The notes beneath the pieces are model-generated. The model saw nothing but the letters and a program-made list of their open reading frames with translations, ran no database searches and was not told the DNA's origin. Positions 35,631 through 43,205 of a stretch of 64,000 nt of DNA are shown here, in pieces. Each line of letters opens with the position of its first letter. The stretch's first letter is position 1. Position numbers and translations under genes: made by a program. Source of the stretch: Candidatus Izemoplasmatales bacterium (GTDB taxonomy: Bacteria > Bacillota_I > Bacilli_A > Izemoplasmatales > Hujiaoplasmataceae); NCBI GenBank assembly GCA_050949045.1, contig JBMNEZ010000001.1:160001-224000 (forward strand), written 5' to 3'.

Positions 35631-35696
35631 AGAAAGCGTTATCACTTAAAAAAATGTATTTATCTTATTGACTTTGCCATTGCTTTCATATATAAT
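35631..35696 (+). promoter_or_regulatory. cre site plus SigA promoter of the opp operon
   Basis: AGAAAGCGTTATCA at 35631-35644; TTGACT-17 nt-TATAAT at 35668-35696. Confidence 0.8.
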
Positions 35697-35743
35697 ATTT
35701 ATATATTCGAGAAGAATAAATTTTTCACAAGGAGAGAAAAAAT

Positions 35744-37663
35744 ATGAAGAAAATATTAGCTTTGTTTTCCACGTTGGTGCTTGCGGTAACTCTGTTTGCA
35801 TGTCAACAAGTGACAACAACCGTTCCCTTGACCACAGCAGTGCCAACAACATCAGCTCCAACGACAACGGCTGCCCCCCTCAAATATTCTGAGGGCGTCA
35901 AATTTGAAGGCGTCAAGCTTCTTGGAGACTACAAATTCTCGTTGACAATTGATCCTGAGGAACTCCCATATTTCTATGAGACTGCCTATGCTGCTGTCGG
36001 GCCAATGCCGATGCATGTTCTCGCTCCAAGTTTCGCGGTCATCGAGTCTGATGATGATGGCGCGACCTTGGTTGGTGGCTTTGGTAAGATTGATGACATC
36101 ATTGCTCTTGATGGTTATCGCTACTATCCGACTGTTACTGCAGGGCCGTACAAGTTTGTCAGCTTTGTCAACCAAGTTGTCACACTTGAAATTGACCCGT
36201 TATTCAAAGGCGACTTCGAAGGTAACAAACCAGTTATTGAGAAAGTTATTCAAAGAAGAGTTAACCAGACACTTGATGTCGAACAGGTTATTTCTGGTGA
36301 AATTGATCTCGTTACTGGTGTCATCGAAGGTGAGAAGATTGAAGCTGCTCAAAACGCTACTACCGCAAGTGCAGATTACTACACTCGTAATGGATATGGC
36401 TTGCTCGCTATGACTTGCGATTTTGGCCCTACAAAAGATGTCAAAGTCCGTCAAGCGATTGCTTACATCACTGACCGTCAACACGTTGCTGACGTTGTCC
36501 TCGGTGGTTATGGTTCAGTTGTTTATAGCGAGTATGGCTTGGCACAATGGATGTATCAAGAAGCTTCAGAAGACAAAGAATGGGAAGATTCAATCAACGA
36601 ATACGCGTTCAGCATTGACGCTGCTAATGAACTTCTTGACCAAACTGAGTGGAAGTACGAATCCGACGGAACTACTGCATGGGATTCCTCTAAAGCTACT
36701 GCGACAAACGAATACTATCGATATAATGCCGATAAAGAAGTTCTCACAATCAAGCATTTTGGTACCGAAAACAATAATGTTACAACTTCATTGAGAGACA
36801 AGTTCGTTTTGAATATGCCACTTTGTGGTATGAAATACGAAATTACCATTGGCACGTTCGATACTTTACTTAATCACTACTACTTCGGATTTCAACTTGG
36901 CGCCGACAGAACCTATTGCTTGTTCAACCTTGCCACCAATTTTGGTACAAATTATGATCCCTATTATAGTTGGCATAGTGATTGGCTCAATACTTGGTAC
37001 AATGGCCAGGGCATGAGCAATGAAGACCTTGATGAATTGATGGTTTCTATGAGACAACTTGATCCGGAACAAAGAGATGAATATCTTGTGTTATGGAAAC
37101 AATATCAAATTCTCTGGAATGAATTGATTCCAAACGTTCCTTTGTATTCGAACCAATATTTTGATGTTTTTGACAAGAACCTCAAGACCAAAGCTGTTGG
37201 TTATACCGGTATTGGCACAACCTCATTCTTTGATTGGACCGCTGCTATCACGACTATGACATATGAAGTTGACACTCCCAATGACGTTCTTATTCATGGC
37301 GTTCCAGAAATGAACGGTGAGTTTATGTCCGGATTTGGCAACAGTGCTTATGACAACAACGTCAGAAGTTTGATTTATGGCTATGGTACATATGCAGTTA
37401 ATCGTGGTGGTGAGATCGTTTTGAATGAAACGGTTGTTAAAGACCTCGATGTTGTTAAAAACGAAGATGGTTCCAAAACCTATACTTTCACTATTTATGA
37501 TGATCTTTATTGGTCTGATGGTGTTGGAATTACCGCTGCTGACTTTGTGTTTGCGATCCTGTTCTCAGGCTCACAAGAATGGCTCAGAGCTGGCGCTACT
37601 TCAACTGCTGGCGAGGGCTTGGTCGGCTACATGAAATACCATGCTGGTGAACCCAAAGAATAA
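35744..37663 (+). CDS. oppA: Family-5 ABC substrate-binding lipoprotein, apparently circularly permuted
   Basis: Lipobox LFAC; TAGPYKF, VRQAIAY and IPNVPLY motifs; TYTFTI..WSDG..ITAADFVF located at the C-terminus. Confidence 0.88.
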   Translation: MKKILALFSTLVLAVTLFACQQVTTTVPLTTAVPTTSAPTTTAAPLKYSEGVKFEGVKLLGDYKFSLTIDPEELPYFYETAYAAVGPMPMHVLAPSFAVIESDDDGATLVGGFGKIDDIIALDGYRYYPTVTAGPYKFVSFVNQVVTLEIDPLFKGDFEGNKPVIEKVIQRRVNQTLDVEQVISGEIDLVTGVIEGEKIEAAQNATTASADYYTRNGYGLLAMTCDFGPTKDVKVRQAIAYITDRQHVADVVLGGYGSVVYSEYGLAQWMYQEASEDKEWEDSINEYAFSIDAANELLDQTEWKYESDGTTAWDSSKATATNEYYRYNADKEVLTIKHFGTENNNVTTSLRDKFVLNMPLCGMKYEITIGTFDTLLNHYYFGFQLGADRTYCLFNLATNFGTNYDPYYSWHSDWLNTWYNGQGMSNEDLDELMVSMRQLDPEQRDEYLVLWKQYQILWNELIPNVPLYSNQYFDVFDKNLKTKAVGYTGIGTTSFFDWTAAITTMTYEVDTPNDVLIHGVPEMNGEFMSGFGNSAYDNNVRSLIYGYGTYAVNRGGEIVLNETVVKDLDVVKNEDGSKTYTFTIYDDLYWSDGVGITAADFVFAILFSGSQEWLRAGATSTAGEGLVGYMKYHAGEPKE

Positions 37664-37721: not shown

Positions 37722-37755
37722 AAGGGAGAGTAGCACCTATACTCTCCCTAGTTTT
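37722..37755 (+). terminator. Intercistronic hairpin between oppA and oppB
   Basis: AGGGAGAGTA...TACTCTCCCT stem followed by GTTTT. Confidence 0.65.
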
Positions 37756-37772: not shown

Positions 37773-38747
37773 ATGCTAAAATTTTTTGGGAGGAGAATTC
37801 TTTCTTTGATCCCAGTTGTTATTGTGATCTCGATCATGTTATTTGTTATCATGAAAATGATGCCTGGGGATCCAGTAAGATACATGTTGCCTCCCGGATT
37901 GATTCGCGATCCAGAAATATATCAAATGCTCTATGATCAAGCATACACCAAATTAGGGCTTGATAAATCGTTGCCTGAACAATACTTGCTTTGGATGAAA
38001 AAAATGTTTACGGGTGATTTCGGCTATTCTTCTTATTGGCAACAAGAAGCAATAGAAGTAATCAAGGAACCTTTAGTCAATAGCATTTTGATCAATGCAT
38101 TTTCGATTGGAATTGCTTTTCTGATTTCCATTCCAGTTGGCATCAAATCTGCAGTCAAGAAAGATTCGCTCACCGACCGAGGTTGGCAAGTGTTATCTCT
38201 TTTTGGTATGTCGATGCCAACATTTTTTATTGGCTTGACCCTAATCTTTTGGTTTTCGTTGAAATTGGGTTGGTTTCCTTCTGGGGGTATGCCATATGAA
38301 GCGCCAGGAACAGCTGACTTTTACCTTTCCTATCTAAAATACTTGATTTTACCGGTTGTCACCCTCACAATCGGCGCACTTGCGGGAACGATTCGTTATG
38401 TTAGAGGATCGATGCTCGAGGCGCTCAGCAAAGACTATATACGAACTGCCAGGGCTAAGGGATTACGAGAGAAAGTTGTTATTTATACTCACGCTTTCCG
38501 AAACGCTTTGATTCCTGTTGTCACTATTATGTCGTTTTCGATCATAGGTTTGTTCGGAGGCTCTGCAATCACTGAACAAATTTTCGTTTGGAATGGCATC
38601 GGCACCGTGCTGATCAAAGCTTTGAATAATAAGGATTACAATGTTGTATTGTTAATGAATATGTTCTATGCCGTATTGTCTCTTGCGGCAAACATAATAA
38701 TGGATATAAGTTATGCGCTGGTAGACCCGCGTGTTAAGGTGGAGTAG
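37773..38747 (+). CDS. oppB: Oligopeptide ABC permease
   Basis: PGDP, GDFGYS, DYIRTARAKGL, HAFRNAL and DPRV motifs. Confidence 0.93.
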   Translation: MLKFFGRRILSLIPVVIVISIMLFVIMKMMPGDPVRYMLPPGLIRDPEIYQMLYDQAYTKLGLDKSLPEQYLLWMKKMFTGDFGYSSYWQQEAIEVIKEPLVNSILINAFSIGIAFLISIPVGIKSAVKKDSLTDRGWQVLSLFGMSMPTFFIGLTLIFWFSLKLGWFPSGGMPYEAPGTADFYLSYLKYLILPVVTLTIGALAGTIRYVRGSMLEALSKDYIRTARAKGLREKVVIYTHAFRNALIPVVTIMSFSIIGLFGGSAITEQIFVWNGIGTVLIKALNNKDYNVVLLMNMFYAVLSLAANIIMDISYALVDPRVKVE

Positions 38748-38757
38748 GAGCGAAGAT

Positions 38758-40647
38758 ATGAATACGATAAAGAAAATCTTCAAGTCCTTCACCGAAATGA
38801 TCAAGCGGTTGTTTGTACCGCAAAAGAGCATTCGTAGCATTCTTGAAGAAGAATCAATGTCAAGCCCGGGGAAAATGGTCGCTAAAAAGTTTATCCGCAA
38901 CAAGTTGGCTATCATCGGCATCATTGGTTTTCTGTTTATGCTCTTTTTCACTTTTGGCTTATCATCATTTATTCCTCTTGATCTATTTAGATCAAATGCC
39001 CATCATGCCAATTTGCCACCCAACTATAGTTACTTGAAATTTCCGAAACAGTTGCAAAAAGAGGGTGTTGTTCAAATTGAATCTGGAGTTGCTTTTTCAA
39101 TCGGTTTGTCCGCAGAAGGAAATGTCTTTATTTGGGGATCGAATATCGAAAACATTAAAGAAATTCCTAAAGCTGTTATGAATGCCAATATTGTTTTCAT
39201 TTCTGCGGGCACTAGACATGCTATGGCTGTCGACGACCAAGGCAACGTCTATCTTTGGGGAAAAAATCATATGCAACAAGCACAAATGGACCCTCGCTAT
39301 GCTGAGGCCATCGAAGCTGATCCGCTCATCTACCTTGAAGGTGGTTATGACCGGACTATCGGGATCACTGAATCTGGTTCTACATACATTTGGGGTGTTG
39401 GAACAAAGATTACCGGACAGCCTCTATTGAGATCTCCCTATACCTATAAAGATGATGAAGAGAATGTAATTAAAGCTGTTCAAGCTGTGGCAAACAATAC
39501 CAATATGATAGTCTTGCTTGAAGACGGAACCATTAGGATTGAAGGGTCAAACAGCGATATTAAACGAAAATTTCCAAAAAGTTTAACTGATGGGACTATA
39601 TCAGTTACCAAAGTAGCAATTACTTATGAAAATGCATTTGCGATTGATGACCAAGGCAATCTCTATGCTTGGGGAAGTTCAAATCGTGATTTGATCAACG
39701 TTGAAAACAACCAAGGCCAGGTCATCAAGTACATCCCTGATGAGGCTATGACCAATGTTGTCGATATCCAAACCGGTTATGAACATGCAGTCGTCTTAAC
39801 TAATGATGGTAAAGTATATGCTTGGGGCAGCAATGCCTTGCAGCAATTGAAAGTACCGAAAATGGAGAATGTTGACACCATCTTTGTGGATGCTTATCAA
39901 AACTATGCAGTCATCGACGGTAAGATTGAAACATGGGGTTTAAAGGGCTTCTTGCTTGGGACTGACGAAGCTGGTCGCGACTTTATCGTTCAATTGATCC
40001 ATGGTGGCAAAGTCACTATGACAGTTGGTTTTGTAGCGGTCATCATATCAGTTATTATTGGTACCGTTGTTGGATTGACCGCAGGTTATGCTGGAGGGAA
40101 ACTAGATAATATTTTGATGCGTTTTGCAGAAATCGTTTCATCATTTCCTTTCCTGCCTTTTGCGATTACGCTTTCGGCATTGCTGCTTGAATCGGCAACT
40201 ACGGAAATCCAGAGGATCATAATGATTATGATTGTCTTGGGCGTTCTCAGTTGGCCGGGTTTGGCGCGGCTCATCCGTGGTCAAATTCTGTCTGAACGAG
40301 AATGTGATTATGTATTGGCCGCAAGAGCACTTGGCATTAAGAATAAGCACATCATTTGGAGACACATTTTTCCAGCGGTTACTAGTATCGTGCTTGTCAA
40401 CCTCACGCTGGGATATGCGGGTTCGCTACTTACTGAAGCCGGTCTTTCCTTTCTTGGATTTGGCGTTCAGAAGCCGAGTCCATCGTGGGGAAATATATTG
40501 ACCGTCGCCCAAGACGCCAACGTTTTCAAATTCTATTGGTGGCGTTGGGTTCTTCCGGGAGTCTGCATCATTGTCACTGCCTTGAGTGTTAACTTGATCG
40601 GCGACGCACTTCGGGATGCTATGGACCCGAAGAATAACGAAAGGTAG
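38758..40647 (+). CDS. oppC: Oligopeptide ABC permease with an inserted RCC1-like beta-propeller
   Basis: OppC_N (FIRNKLA); repeated GxVYxWG units; then LGTDEAGRD, EAGLSFLGFG and GDALRDAMDP. Confidence 0.9.
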   Translation: MNTIKKIFKSFTEMIKRLFVPQKSIRSILEEESMSSPGKMVAKKFIRNKLAIIGIIGFLFMLFFTFGLSSFIPLDLFRSNAHHANLPPNYSYLKFPKQLQKEGVVQIESGVAFSIGLSAEGNVFIWGSNIENIKEIPKAVMNANIVFISAGTRHAMAVDDQGNVYLWGKNHMQQAQMDPRYAEAIEADPLIYLEGGYDRTIGITESGSTYIWGVGTKITGQPLLRSPYTYKDDEENVIKAVQAVANNTNMIVLLEDGTIRIEGSNSDIKRKFPKSLTDGTISVTKVAITYENAFAIDDQGNLYAWGSSNRDLINVENNQGQVIKYIPDEAMTNVVDIQTGYEHAVVLTNDGKVYAWGSNALQQLKVPKMENVDTIFVDAYQNYAVIDGKIETWGLKGFLLGTDEAGRDFIVQLIHGGKVTMTVGFVAVIISVIIGTVVGLTAGYAGGKLDNILMRFAEIVSSFPFLPFAITLSALLLESATTEIQRIIMIMIVLGVLSWPGLARLIRGQILSERECDYVLAARALGIKNKHIIWRHIFPAVTSIVLVNLTLGYAGSLLTEAGLSFLGFGVQKPSPSWGNILTVAQDANVFKFYWWRWVLPGVCIIVTALSVNLIGDALRDAMDPKNNER

Positions 40648-40657
40648 GTATTGTCAA

Positions 40658-41662
40658 ATGAGCCTACTGGAAATTAAGAATCTTCACACATATTTCACAA
40701 CCAGACGGGGATTGATCAAAGCCGCCTATGGTGTTTCTTTGAAAGTTGAAGAAGGTCAGACCCTTGGCATTGTCGGTGAATCCGGCAGCGGCAAGAGCGT
40801 TACTGCTATGAGTATTCTGAAACTATTCGAGAAAAACCAGAAGATCCATGAAGGAGAAATCTGGTTCCAAGGAGAGAAAATCTCCGATTTTAACGATGCG
40901 GAACTAAGAAAGATTCGCGGCAACAAAATTTCCGTCATATTCCAAGAACCGATGACCAGCTTGAACCCGGTTTTGACCGTGAAAAAGCAGCTTTTCGAAG
41001 TATTGATGCTTCACCAAAATTTAAATAAAGAACAAGCATATAAACGGGTGCTCGATTTGCTGGCTGAAGTCGGCATTTCTAACCCTGACAAGATTGCCAA
41101 TGCTTATTCATTCCAACTTTCAGGAGGCATGAGCCAAAGAGTAATGATTGCTATGGCTCTCGCTTGCCGGCCGAAGTTGCTGATTGCCGACGAACCCACA
41201 ACTGCGCTTGATGTCACCATTCAAGCTCAGATTTTGAAATTGATGAACGATCTGAAACGAGAGTTGGGAACGTCGATCATTTTTGTTACCCACGACCTTG
41301 GCGTTATCAACGAAATGGCCGATGTCGTTGTCGTCATGTATTGCGGACAAGTGGTTGAAAGTACTTCTGCGAATGTCATTTTTGCGCAAAAGTCAGATTA
41401 CATGCATCCTTATACTGAAGGCTTGATGCTTTCTATTCCTAGATTGTCTGACAAGAAAGGCAGAAAGCTTGAGGTTATTCCTGGCGCTGTCCCTCACCCA
41501 CTCGATTTGCCGGTTGGCTGTAAGTTCGCACCGAGATGCAAATATGCTACGGAAAAGTGCAAACATGAGGATCCAGAATATCTTGAGGTGGAACCGAATC
41601 ATTTCGTTCGTTGTTTCTATCCGAGAAATGAGGTGCGACGCAGTGGCAAACACAACAAATAG
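40658..41662 (+). CDS. oppD: Oligopeptide ABC ATPase
   Basis: [27 protein letters not shown] and C-terminal CKFAPRC. Confidence 0.94.
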
Positions 41663-43205
41663 AGCCCCCTTGATTCAAGTCAAGGAGTTAAAAAAGTACT
41701 TTCCCCTCAAGAAAAATACTTTTCTTGATCGCAAACAAATCTACGTCAGAGCTGTTGAGGACGTCAATATCACCCTTTTTGAAGGTGAAACATTCGGATT
41801 AGTTGGAGAGAGTGGTTGTGGTAAATCAACTCTTGGTCGGATTATCCTCCAACTCTATGAGCCAACAAGCGGTAGTGTTGCCTATTACGGTTCTATTTTT
41901 AAAACGATGACACTTGACTACATCGTCAAAGAAATTAAGATGCTTTCAGAGTACCAAGAAAAGGCTAAAAAGTGCTACTATCAAGGAACTATGATTGATG
42001 AACAAGCCGCCAATTGTCAAAAAGAGATGGATTCGATTCTGACCGCGTGCTCTGGGCTTGAGAAAGGTTGCAAAGAAGAAAAAATCGGGCAGAAAAATTA
42101 TGAACGCTTAAGCAAACGACTTGCCAGACTACAAACAAAAGCGCTTGCGAAGAAAAAACAATCATCAAGATACTTGCGCCAAGGATCGCGGATGATAGGC
42201 AGTTTGATTTTATCGAGCAAACTTAATGAGATTGTCGAATTGTTGCTCAAGGCTGTTGGGAAAGTCAAGCATAATCGGGATATCATCTTGGCTCTTGGAG
42301 ACAGTTATCCTGAATACTTTACCGAGGATCTTGTTGATTTGTTCGACAAGATCAAGAGTTATCGTGACAAAGATTATCTGCCCATCATCGCGCCGGCTCT
42401 TAGTGAAAATTTTCAAGCATCGCTGGATTATTACCGCGAATCAGGAATCATGCTCCAACTTCTTGACAAAGAAGAGATGCGCCAACTCCGGAGAAAACTG
42501 CAGATCATTTTCCAAGATCCGTATTCTTCACTTGATACTAGGATGACAGTTGGTCAGATAATCGGTGAAGCTGTGGTGGAACATGGCCTTTACAAAAAAG
42601 GTTCGAAAGAACTCGAGGATTATGTTATCGAGACTATGGCAAAGTGTGGCCTTGACCATTATATGTTGCACCGGTTTCCGCACCAGTTCTCCGGCGGACA
42701 GAGACAAAGAATCGGAATTGCGAGAGCCCTTGCGCTCAAACCGGAATTTGTCGTATGTGATGAAGCCGTCAGCGCCCTTGATGTATCGATCCAATCGCAG
42801 ATTATCAATCTCTTGATGGAACTCAAGGCACAGGAAAAACTGACCTACCTTTTCATTTCCCATGATCTGAGTGTTATCAAGCATATCAGTGATCGTATCG
42901 GCGTCATGTATCTTGGAGTGATGGTCGAACTTGGGCAATCCGAAGAAATCTATGACAATCCGCTCCATCCATATACCAAAGCATTAATGTCAGCCATTCC
43001 CACTACCGATGAAATCCAGCCGGAAAGAATCCTTCTCAAAGGTGAAATCCCATCGAATATTTTCCCGCCATCGGGCTGCAAATTCCGAACTAGATGCCCG
43101 CTTGCACGGGAAAGGTGTGCTAAGGAAGTCCCTGTCTACAGAGAAATCAAACCAGGCCACTTTGTTGCTTGTCACTTCTATGAAGAGACGAAGGATATGA
43201 AATAA
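41643..43205 (+). CDS. oppF: Oligopeptide ABC ATPase with a ~180-aa insertion
   Basis: GESGCGKS, FQDPYSSL, FSGGQRQR and CDEAVSALD; GTG start with SD GAGGTG. Confidence 0.92.
   Translation: MANTTNRAPLIQVKELKKYFPLKKNTFLDRKQIYVRAVEDVNITLFEGETFGLVGESGCGKSTLGRIILQLYEPTSGSVAYYGSIFKTMTLDYIVKEIKMLSEYQEKAKKCYYQGTMIDEQAANCQKEMDSILTACSGLEKGCKEEKIGQKNYERLSKRLARLQTKALAKKKQSSRYLRQGSRMIGSLILSSKLNEIVELLLKAVGKVKHNRDIILALGDSYPEYFTEDLVDLFDKIKSYRDKDYLPIIAPALSENFQASLDYYRESGIMLQLLDKEEMRQLRRKLQIIFQDPYSSLDTRMTVGQIIGEAVVEHGLYKKGSKELEDYVIETMAKCGLDHYMLHRFPHQFSGGQRQRIGIARALALKPEFVVCDEAVSALDVSIQSQIINLLMELKAQEKLTYLFISHDLSVIKHISDRIGVMYLGVMVELGQSEEIYDNPLHPYTKALMSAIPTTDEIQPERILLKGEIPSNIFPPSGCKFRTRCPLARERCAKEVPVYREIKPGHFVACHFYEETKDMK

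Follow-up and report, generated by a model that had tools for sequence, protein, structure and literature searches.

Cluster C substrate-binding proteins such as AppA of Bacillus subtilis (1XOC), DppA of Escherichia coli (1DPP), NikA and OppA of Lactococcus lactis belong to the same Pfam family as the protein described here and share its oppABCDF context; their N-terminal part comes first, whereas in our protein it stands at the C terminus. Circular permutation is known to occur in nature: a 2008 paper reports it among glycine-betaine-binding proteins (2B4L, 1R9L and 1SW1), molybdate-binding proteins and CysB, and calls the origin and frequency of such events uncertain (PMC2395249). The glycine-betaine-binding permutants are also ABC substrate-binding proteins and keep the pocket in place, but they belong to another structural cluster and form pairs with less than 24% identity, in contrast to the approximately 70% of the pair presented below, which comes from one subfamily with several cut points (PMC2395249). 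For the anchor of such proteins, a close described system is DppABCD of Mycobacterium tuberculosis, which, like our putative lipoprotein, pairs a cluster C binding protein with its own translocator; there, DppB is reported to bind the N-terminal loop and the lipid, and the lipidated N terminus, held by Arg100 of DppB, is required for assembly (PMC10954201), whereas in our protein a 28-residue tether runs into a different strand. No description of circular permutation in family 5 was found in the titles and abstract openings of the open-access literature. The interest here lies in a close pair of permuted and unpermuted proteins, together with a series of cut points.

The window (the whole stretch of 64,000 nucleotides from a Candidatus Izemoplasmatales genome that was analysed) contains an opp operon, the first gene of which is an uninterrupted reading frame of 639 codons (Table 1). 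A preliminary description made from the letters alone had proposed that the segment that normally opens family-5 proteins comes last in this product, and this was borne out by comparisons with the PDB, Pfam, BLASTP matches and an AlphaFold model; the landmarks that it listed (reading frame, lipobox, Thr linker, the D514 codon at 37283 and WSDG at 37511) lie where it had placed them. Against chain A of 9P48, the closest PDB entry by sequence ('peptide-binding protein OppA', for which no mention was found in the open-access papers searched), residues 521–610 correspond to chain residues 10–95 and residues 132–499 to chain residues 175–552. The SBP_bac_5 profile (PF00496), expected to match twice in swapped order, does so: profile positions 62–304 lie at genome positions 195894–196742, ahead of profile positions 11–44 at 197457–197558 (112.5 bits over the two stretches; gathering cut-off, 32.4), and the canonical proteins P0007 and P0009 each match in a single stretch. 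BLASTP aligned residues 33–508 with P0007 168–634 (70% identity) and residues 516–633 with P0007 45–163 (69%, E = 3e-47). On a profile of 610 positions built from 93 canonical proteins, the product covers positions 158–609 and then 33–159—that is, the entire core once, rotated, in one open frame and with almost no core residues lost or doubled. The old termini are joined through about five residues, and the links of other permutants are similarly short. The new chain start falls in a variable loop immediately ahead of the FxGV strand (profile 158/159, approximately DppA residue 100–107); canonical relatives carry insertions in this loop that reach 67 residues. The new start is thereby placed within the additional subdomain of the N-lobe (domain II of the classic OppA/DppA nomenclature). 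The oppA product is a natural, derived circular permutant of family 5 (OppA-type).

Table 1 Features of the oppA locus (window coordinates).
Feature	Position	Strand	Basis
Sigma70-like promoter TTGACT-17-TATAAT upstream of oppA	35668..35696	+	11/12 consensus bases
oppA, 639 aa: predicted lipoprotein, substrate-binding protein of family 5 / cluster C in circularly permuted order	35744..37663	+	PDB, Pfam, BLASTP and AlphaFold comparisons
Putative lipoprotein signal peptide ending LFAC (Cys20)	35744..35803	+	Hydrophobic leader; lipidation inferred
Thr/Pro/Ala tether, 28 residues	35804..35887	+	pLDDT <50 for residues 1–42
Segment A, residues 49–508: middle and C-terminal part of the canonical chain, now leading	35888..37267	+	Aligns with P0007 168/185–634, DppA 100–507, AppA 126–520
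New link, residues 509–513, old C-terminal strand to old first strand	37268..37282	+	pLDDT 94 / 88 (blocks 501–510 / 511–520); bridged by contigs of four runs
Segment B, residues 514–639: canonical N-terminal core, now last	37283..37660	+	Aligns with P0007 45–163 (69%), 9p48_A 10–95
Hairpin in oppA–oppB spacer	37723..37749	+	Similar in permuted and canonical loci, spacers compared by eye
oppB, permease	37773..38747	+	PF00528, PF19300
oppC, permease carrying an RCC1-like propeller as an insert; probable ATG start 38761	38731..40647	+	PF12911, PF13540/PF25390, PF00528
oppD, ATPase; start probably 40658	40616..41662	+	PF00005, PF08352
oppF, ATPase interrupted by an insert; actual start probably close to 41652	41469..43205	+	PF00005 in two stretches, PF08352

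The operon encodes the two permeases and two ATPases with oligo_HPY domains of an Opp/Dpp/Nik-type importer, and its oppB is the only oppB-like gene of the genome at E ≤ 1e-6. As oppA is the only PF00496 gene in this 98%-complete, single-contig genome, in which tblastn and blastn searches found neither a second oppA nor a remnant of one, its product probably still works as OppA. None of the NCBIfam equivalog cut-offs for OppA, DppA or NikA was reached (the best was Opp4A, with 70.4 of 650 bits), and a canonical sister also falls below the Opp4A cut-off (81.3 bits). Family and operon together point to oligopeptide binding, in a family that also binds nickel and sugars according to PDB titles. 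In chain order the product is not a typical family-5 member; the change of order would leave its working like one untouched, and the transporter biology itself is ordinary. Cys20 is invariant in all six permuted homologs, and Lgt and LspA family genes are present in the host genome; the second letter of LFAC departs from the usual lipobox. A strong promoter had been claimed for the gene; what the sequence offers is a match to the consensus, the best of 9 promoter-like sites found (7.5 expected by chance). Contigs from RNA runs start at 35718–35737, although contig ends cannot mark the start of transcription.

Two of the partner genes carry inserts. In OppC, an RCC1-like propeller of approximately 300 residues sits between the N-terminal helix and the permease domain, and it is older than the permutation, given that canonical loci down to approximately 43% identity align with it over the full length; the length and order of oppC are the same in canonical loci. 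The propeller could provide the binding protein with a docking site or a lid, and it weakly matches a second RCC1-like stretch of the genome (G000:C1:265442-266233; 22% identity, E = 6e-8). A long insert that splits the ABC ATPase domain of OppF is present in related loci too.

For structure prediction, AlphaFold was given 57 rows, comprising 7 full-length permuted sequences and A-only or B-only canonical rows stacked in the permuted order. The resulting model has a mean pLDDT of 91.3 and a pTM of 0.87, with disorder only in residues 1–42 and values of 88–94 at the junction; six full-length permuted rows gave a pLDDT of 32.7. The model shows that the permuted order is compatible with one compact fold, although the stacking of rows in that order keeps it from proving folding. 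The best solved match was AppA (1xoc; Z = 26.6, rmsd 2.6 over 390 residues). In sequence order, AppA, DppA, NikA and lactococcal OppA match only residues ~47–510 of the model (Z = 22–27), equivalent to residue ~100–126 through to the C terminus of the solved cluster C structures; none of the 50 solved entries listed aligned in order with the whole model, and none of these 50 is permuted. Foldseek returned the same family as the fold match, and the ESM Atlas returned family-5 clusters only. The predicted model has the two-lobed cluster C fold.

In the model, the putative lipid tether enters the fold at a different strand. The preliminary description had gone further, proposing that the anchor would move to a different face of the fold; the model and the structure match show a change of strand, which may or may not amount to a change of face. 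Tethers measure 28–36 residues in five permuted proteins and 20–26 in the three closest canonical sisters, a difference of 2–16 residues; for a wider set of 25 canonical relatives the median is 10. These lengths suggest that a long tether predates the permutation and absorbs the move of the anchor, which a flexible linker of 28 residues may make unimportant.

For the history of the permutation, segments were aligned in canonical order (26 rows, 7 permuted). The permuted rows form one clade (support 95/91), sister to the canonical proteins P0007 and P0008 and inside further canonical proteins, with a single change of order across the tree; FastTree on 143 rows recovered the same clade (0.955). 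As the permuted clade nests within canonical proteins, the permuted order is derived and most likely arose once, in the ancestor of part of this lineage. The canonical sisters P0007, P0008 (locus L063, genome G026) and P0009 (locus L087, genome G031) are 64–72% identical on both segments and have a similar signal peptide, a Thr-rich tether and the same operon and spacer; they differ in their B–A order and slightly shorter tether. The gene order arcC(-osmC)-oppABCDF is the same at the permuted loci L070 and L071 and the canonical loci L087, L063 and L068 (no osmC match was found at L063 or L068), and the spacer of approximately 110 bases between oppA and oppB, with its hairpin, looks alike in permuted and canonical loci: the permutation occurred in place. 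In a tree of the OppBCD partners, the three permuted loci among ten rows grouped weakly (65/52), compatible with vertical descent.

Both segments have been under purifying selection since the permutation: among permuted genes, dN is 0.11–0.21 against a dS of 1.2–2.5 or saturated in each segment, a rough comparison given that dS is near saturation. In 68 canonical proteins, 143 columns reach a conservation of 90% or more, and the oppA product retains 136 of them. In a 28-row tree of the subfamily, the terminal branches of permuted rows (0.17–0.23) compare with 0.23 for canonical P0007; the permuted protein P0010 has a long branch (0.6, 26-row tree).

The lineage of this gene is one of several with rotated order. 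A search with the junction only returned 31 proteins from 72 candidates, three of which, P0125–P0127 (32–34% identity), also cross the junction; in these the same two natural ends are joined and the chain opens near profile position 535 (P0127 being a truncated protein of this second type). With a profile of these three, 1,060 proteins were found among 50% representatives, and 32 of the best 150 are reordered: 28 are of the ~535 type, a large second clade (P0125–P0127 and the P0180–P0222 group) that the query favours (19 near full length and 9 fragments), two are cut at ~312, one at ~425 and one at 492. Together with the oppA product, the start points are therefore profile positions 158, 312, ~425, 492 and ~535, sites that lie at the 77th–99th percentile of indel activity over 93 canonical rows and thus appear to be indel-tolerant, as far as five sites can tell. 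Another four of the best 150 (P0194, P0252, P0305 and P0220) hold two full copies in one frame, linked by about 8, 23, 71 and 219 residues, respectively; the copies within each are 28–58% identical, and all four doubles fall on branches other than that of oppA. On the 28-row tree, whose rows were chosen after an earlier tree had been viewed, the permuted or canonical label changes five times, each change being forced by starred branches, and permutation recurs at least four times in the subfamily. A single clade of all permutants was rejected on this tree (p-AU = 4e-59).

Canonical neighbours are distinct for each of the 158, 425, 492 and 535 types: P0235 (cut ~425; one member) is sister to a canonical-order protein at 59% identity and P0271 (cut 492; three members) to one at 62%. 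The two proteins cut at ~312, P0185 and P0191, nest inside the 535 clade, as does P0187, which is in canonical order; this placement points to second rotations and maybe to one return to the canonical order, unless the 535 type itself arose several times. P0185 and the double P0194 have one member each, and P0191 has two. We lean towards viewing this Bacillota OppA subfamily as a standing permutation hot spot, in which head-to-tail doubles would resolve at any tolerant loop, rotate a second time (P0191 and P0185) and return to canonical order (P0187).

We regard as likely an origin of the oppA product by duplication and trimming that left a working, nearly neutral permutant, a judgement that does not exclude the alternatives weighed below. 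A head-to-tail duplication of oppA with in-frame fusion would have given the order signal peptide–B–A–B'–A', from which B behind the signal peptide and A' before the oppA–oppB spacer would then have been lost; the four other cut points, each of them a joining of these two natural ends, would follow from the same route. The product, anchored through Cys20, would catch a peptide-like ligand between two lobes in the manner of a Venus flytrap and pass it on to OppBCDF in the way of its canonical sisters, while the long flexible tether, a feature that those sisters already have, would absorb the moved anchor and keep the change close to neutral. Duplication followed by trimming had already been put forward in the preliminary description. 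It is the best-supported route, as it would explain both the ends and short link shared by every permutant and the existence of doubles, and the in-frame doubles are tandem forms in relatives of the kind that it had asked to be looked for; intermediates on the lineage of oppA itself did not turn up. No tandem or B–A–B form was found there among homologs (best 120 of 1,509), longer proteins, the genome or the loci of the genus and order, and the search for longer proteins yielded two matches, each a single canonical domain joined to other modules; as evidence this search is weak. The doubles on other branches, with their divergent copies, indicate that the intermediate state can exist, but not that it was used.

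This absence of a tandem intermediate from the permuted clade is what an origin without lasting duplication would predict—segment B cut and re-inserted behind A (by cut-and-paste or as an excised circle), or a split followed by re-fusion. The rotation is a clean one: no duplicated residues remain and the oppA–oppB spacer resembles the canonical one. Routes of this kind are among the proposed mechanisms that the 2008 paper lists (PMC2395249). We nevertheless consider such an origin unlikely: the joining of the same two ends in all five cut types is the direct outcome of head-to-tail duplication, in-frame doubles do occur in the subfamily, no clean pair of A-only and B-only genes was present among the loci examined, and the two broken frames (L039 and L085) break elsewhere.

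A somewhat less probable alternative still is that the permutation was adaptive, the moved tether altering the seating on OppBC, the ligand range or the kinetics. Anchor position could matter, given that the M. tuberculosis permease DppB is reported to hold the lipidated N terminus through Arg100 (PMC10954201), and the repeated permutation in the subfamily and the longer tethers of permuted proteins would fit such a benefit. Permuted end branches, however, show no clear increase in rate, conserved columns are kept and the partner genes retain the same architecture. The canonical form also persists in the same genus (G026), the cut points show no convergence on a single site but are spread across the fold, and canonical P0187 nests inside a permuted clade.

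Support for the sequence itself was sought in assembled contigs, not raw reads, of 4 runs among the 24 listed. The contigs of three RNA runs from three studies (X8, X12 and X20), none of them marked as a potential origin of the DNA analysed here, span oppA with 0, 1 and 21 other letters, and a 188-base contig of the DNA run X16 bridges 37204–37391, so that the interval 37250–37290, for which read support had been called for, is crossed in all four; no joints were listed within the supporting contigs across oppA. The gene is thus present in RNA libraries of three studies, although an RNA library may carry DNA. Among the best 120 of 1,509 near-length matches, 6 have the permuted order and the other 114 the canonical order. 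The six represent 90% clusters of 1 to 13 members (that of oppA itself and five at 57–80% identity), with members from NCBI, JGI, ENA and Logan; those with a name carry the label Candidatus Izemoplasmatales or Acholeplasmataceae, and such genes are annotated plainly as 'ABC transporter substrate-binding protein'. Four of the ten genomes of the genus have a strong match, permuted in G000, G025 and G028 and canonical in G026; matches at E ≤ 1e-25 occur in 9 of the 158 genomes of the order, and all five from outside the genus have the canonical form. An assembly artefact or non-functional relic, for which the coverage gaps of X16 inside oppA and the reliance on contigs might speak, is highly improbable and refuted as far as the data allow, given the same order in six clusters at 57–100% identity from several sources and in two further genomes of the genus, a junction bridged by contigs of four studies (one with 21 other letters), purifying selection and the standing of oppA as the sole family-5 gene; the misassembly against which the preliminary description had cautioned did not appear.

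Most known permuted pairs are too divergent to trace, whereas the present pair is approximately 70% identical and shares operon and genus. With the cut points and doubles, it makes it possible to compare stability, binding and transport side by side and to map the order of events; if the hot-spot reading is true, both the route and the fitness effect of a natural permutation can be put to a direct test. A presumably lipid-tethered cluster C protein that seemingly tolerates a moved anchor bears on docking models in which the permease recognizes the lipidated N terminus. The natural cut sites offer pre-tested positions for the engineering of permuted sensors, and permuted genes pass annotation unnoticed as ordinary substrate-binding proteins.

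Several smaller features were seen along the way. The leader of permuted P0006 (…FSVVAC) resembles that of canonical P0009, whereas the other permuted leaders have …VTLFAC in common with those of canonical P0007 and P0008, which may reflect an exchange of the 5' end or a signal type of the host lineage. A PF09479 domain lies ahead of the binding domain in P0010, P0030, P0034, P0035, P0060 and P0122, and P0010 combines it with the permuted order. By eye, a TAPE-like stretch, a candidate microhomology at the ends of the deletion, recurs at tether ends and in the canonical loop of P0007, in genes whose synonymous sites are near saturation. Two canonical oppA-like paralogs stand side by side at one locus on G137:C78 (L038 and L041) and at L090, the arrangement from which a fusion would start.
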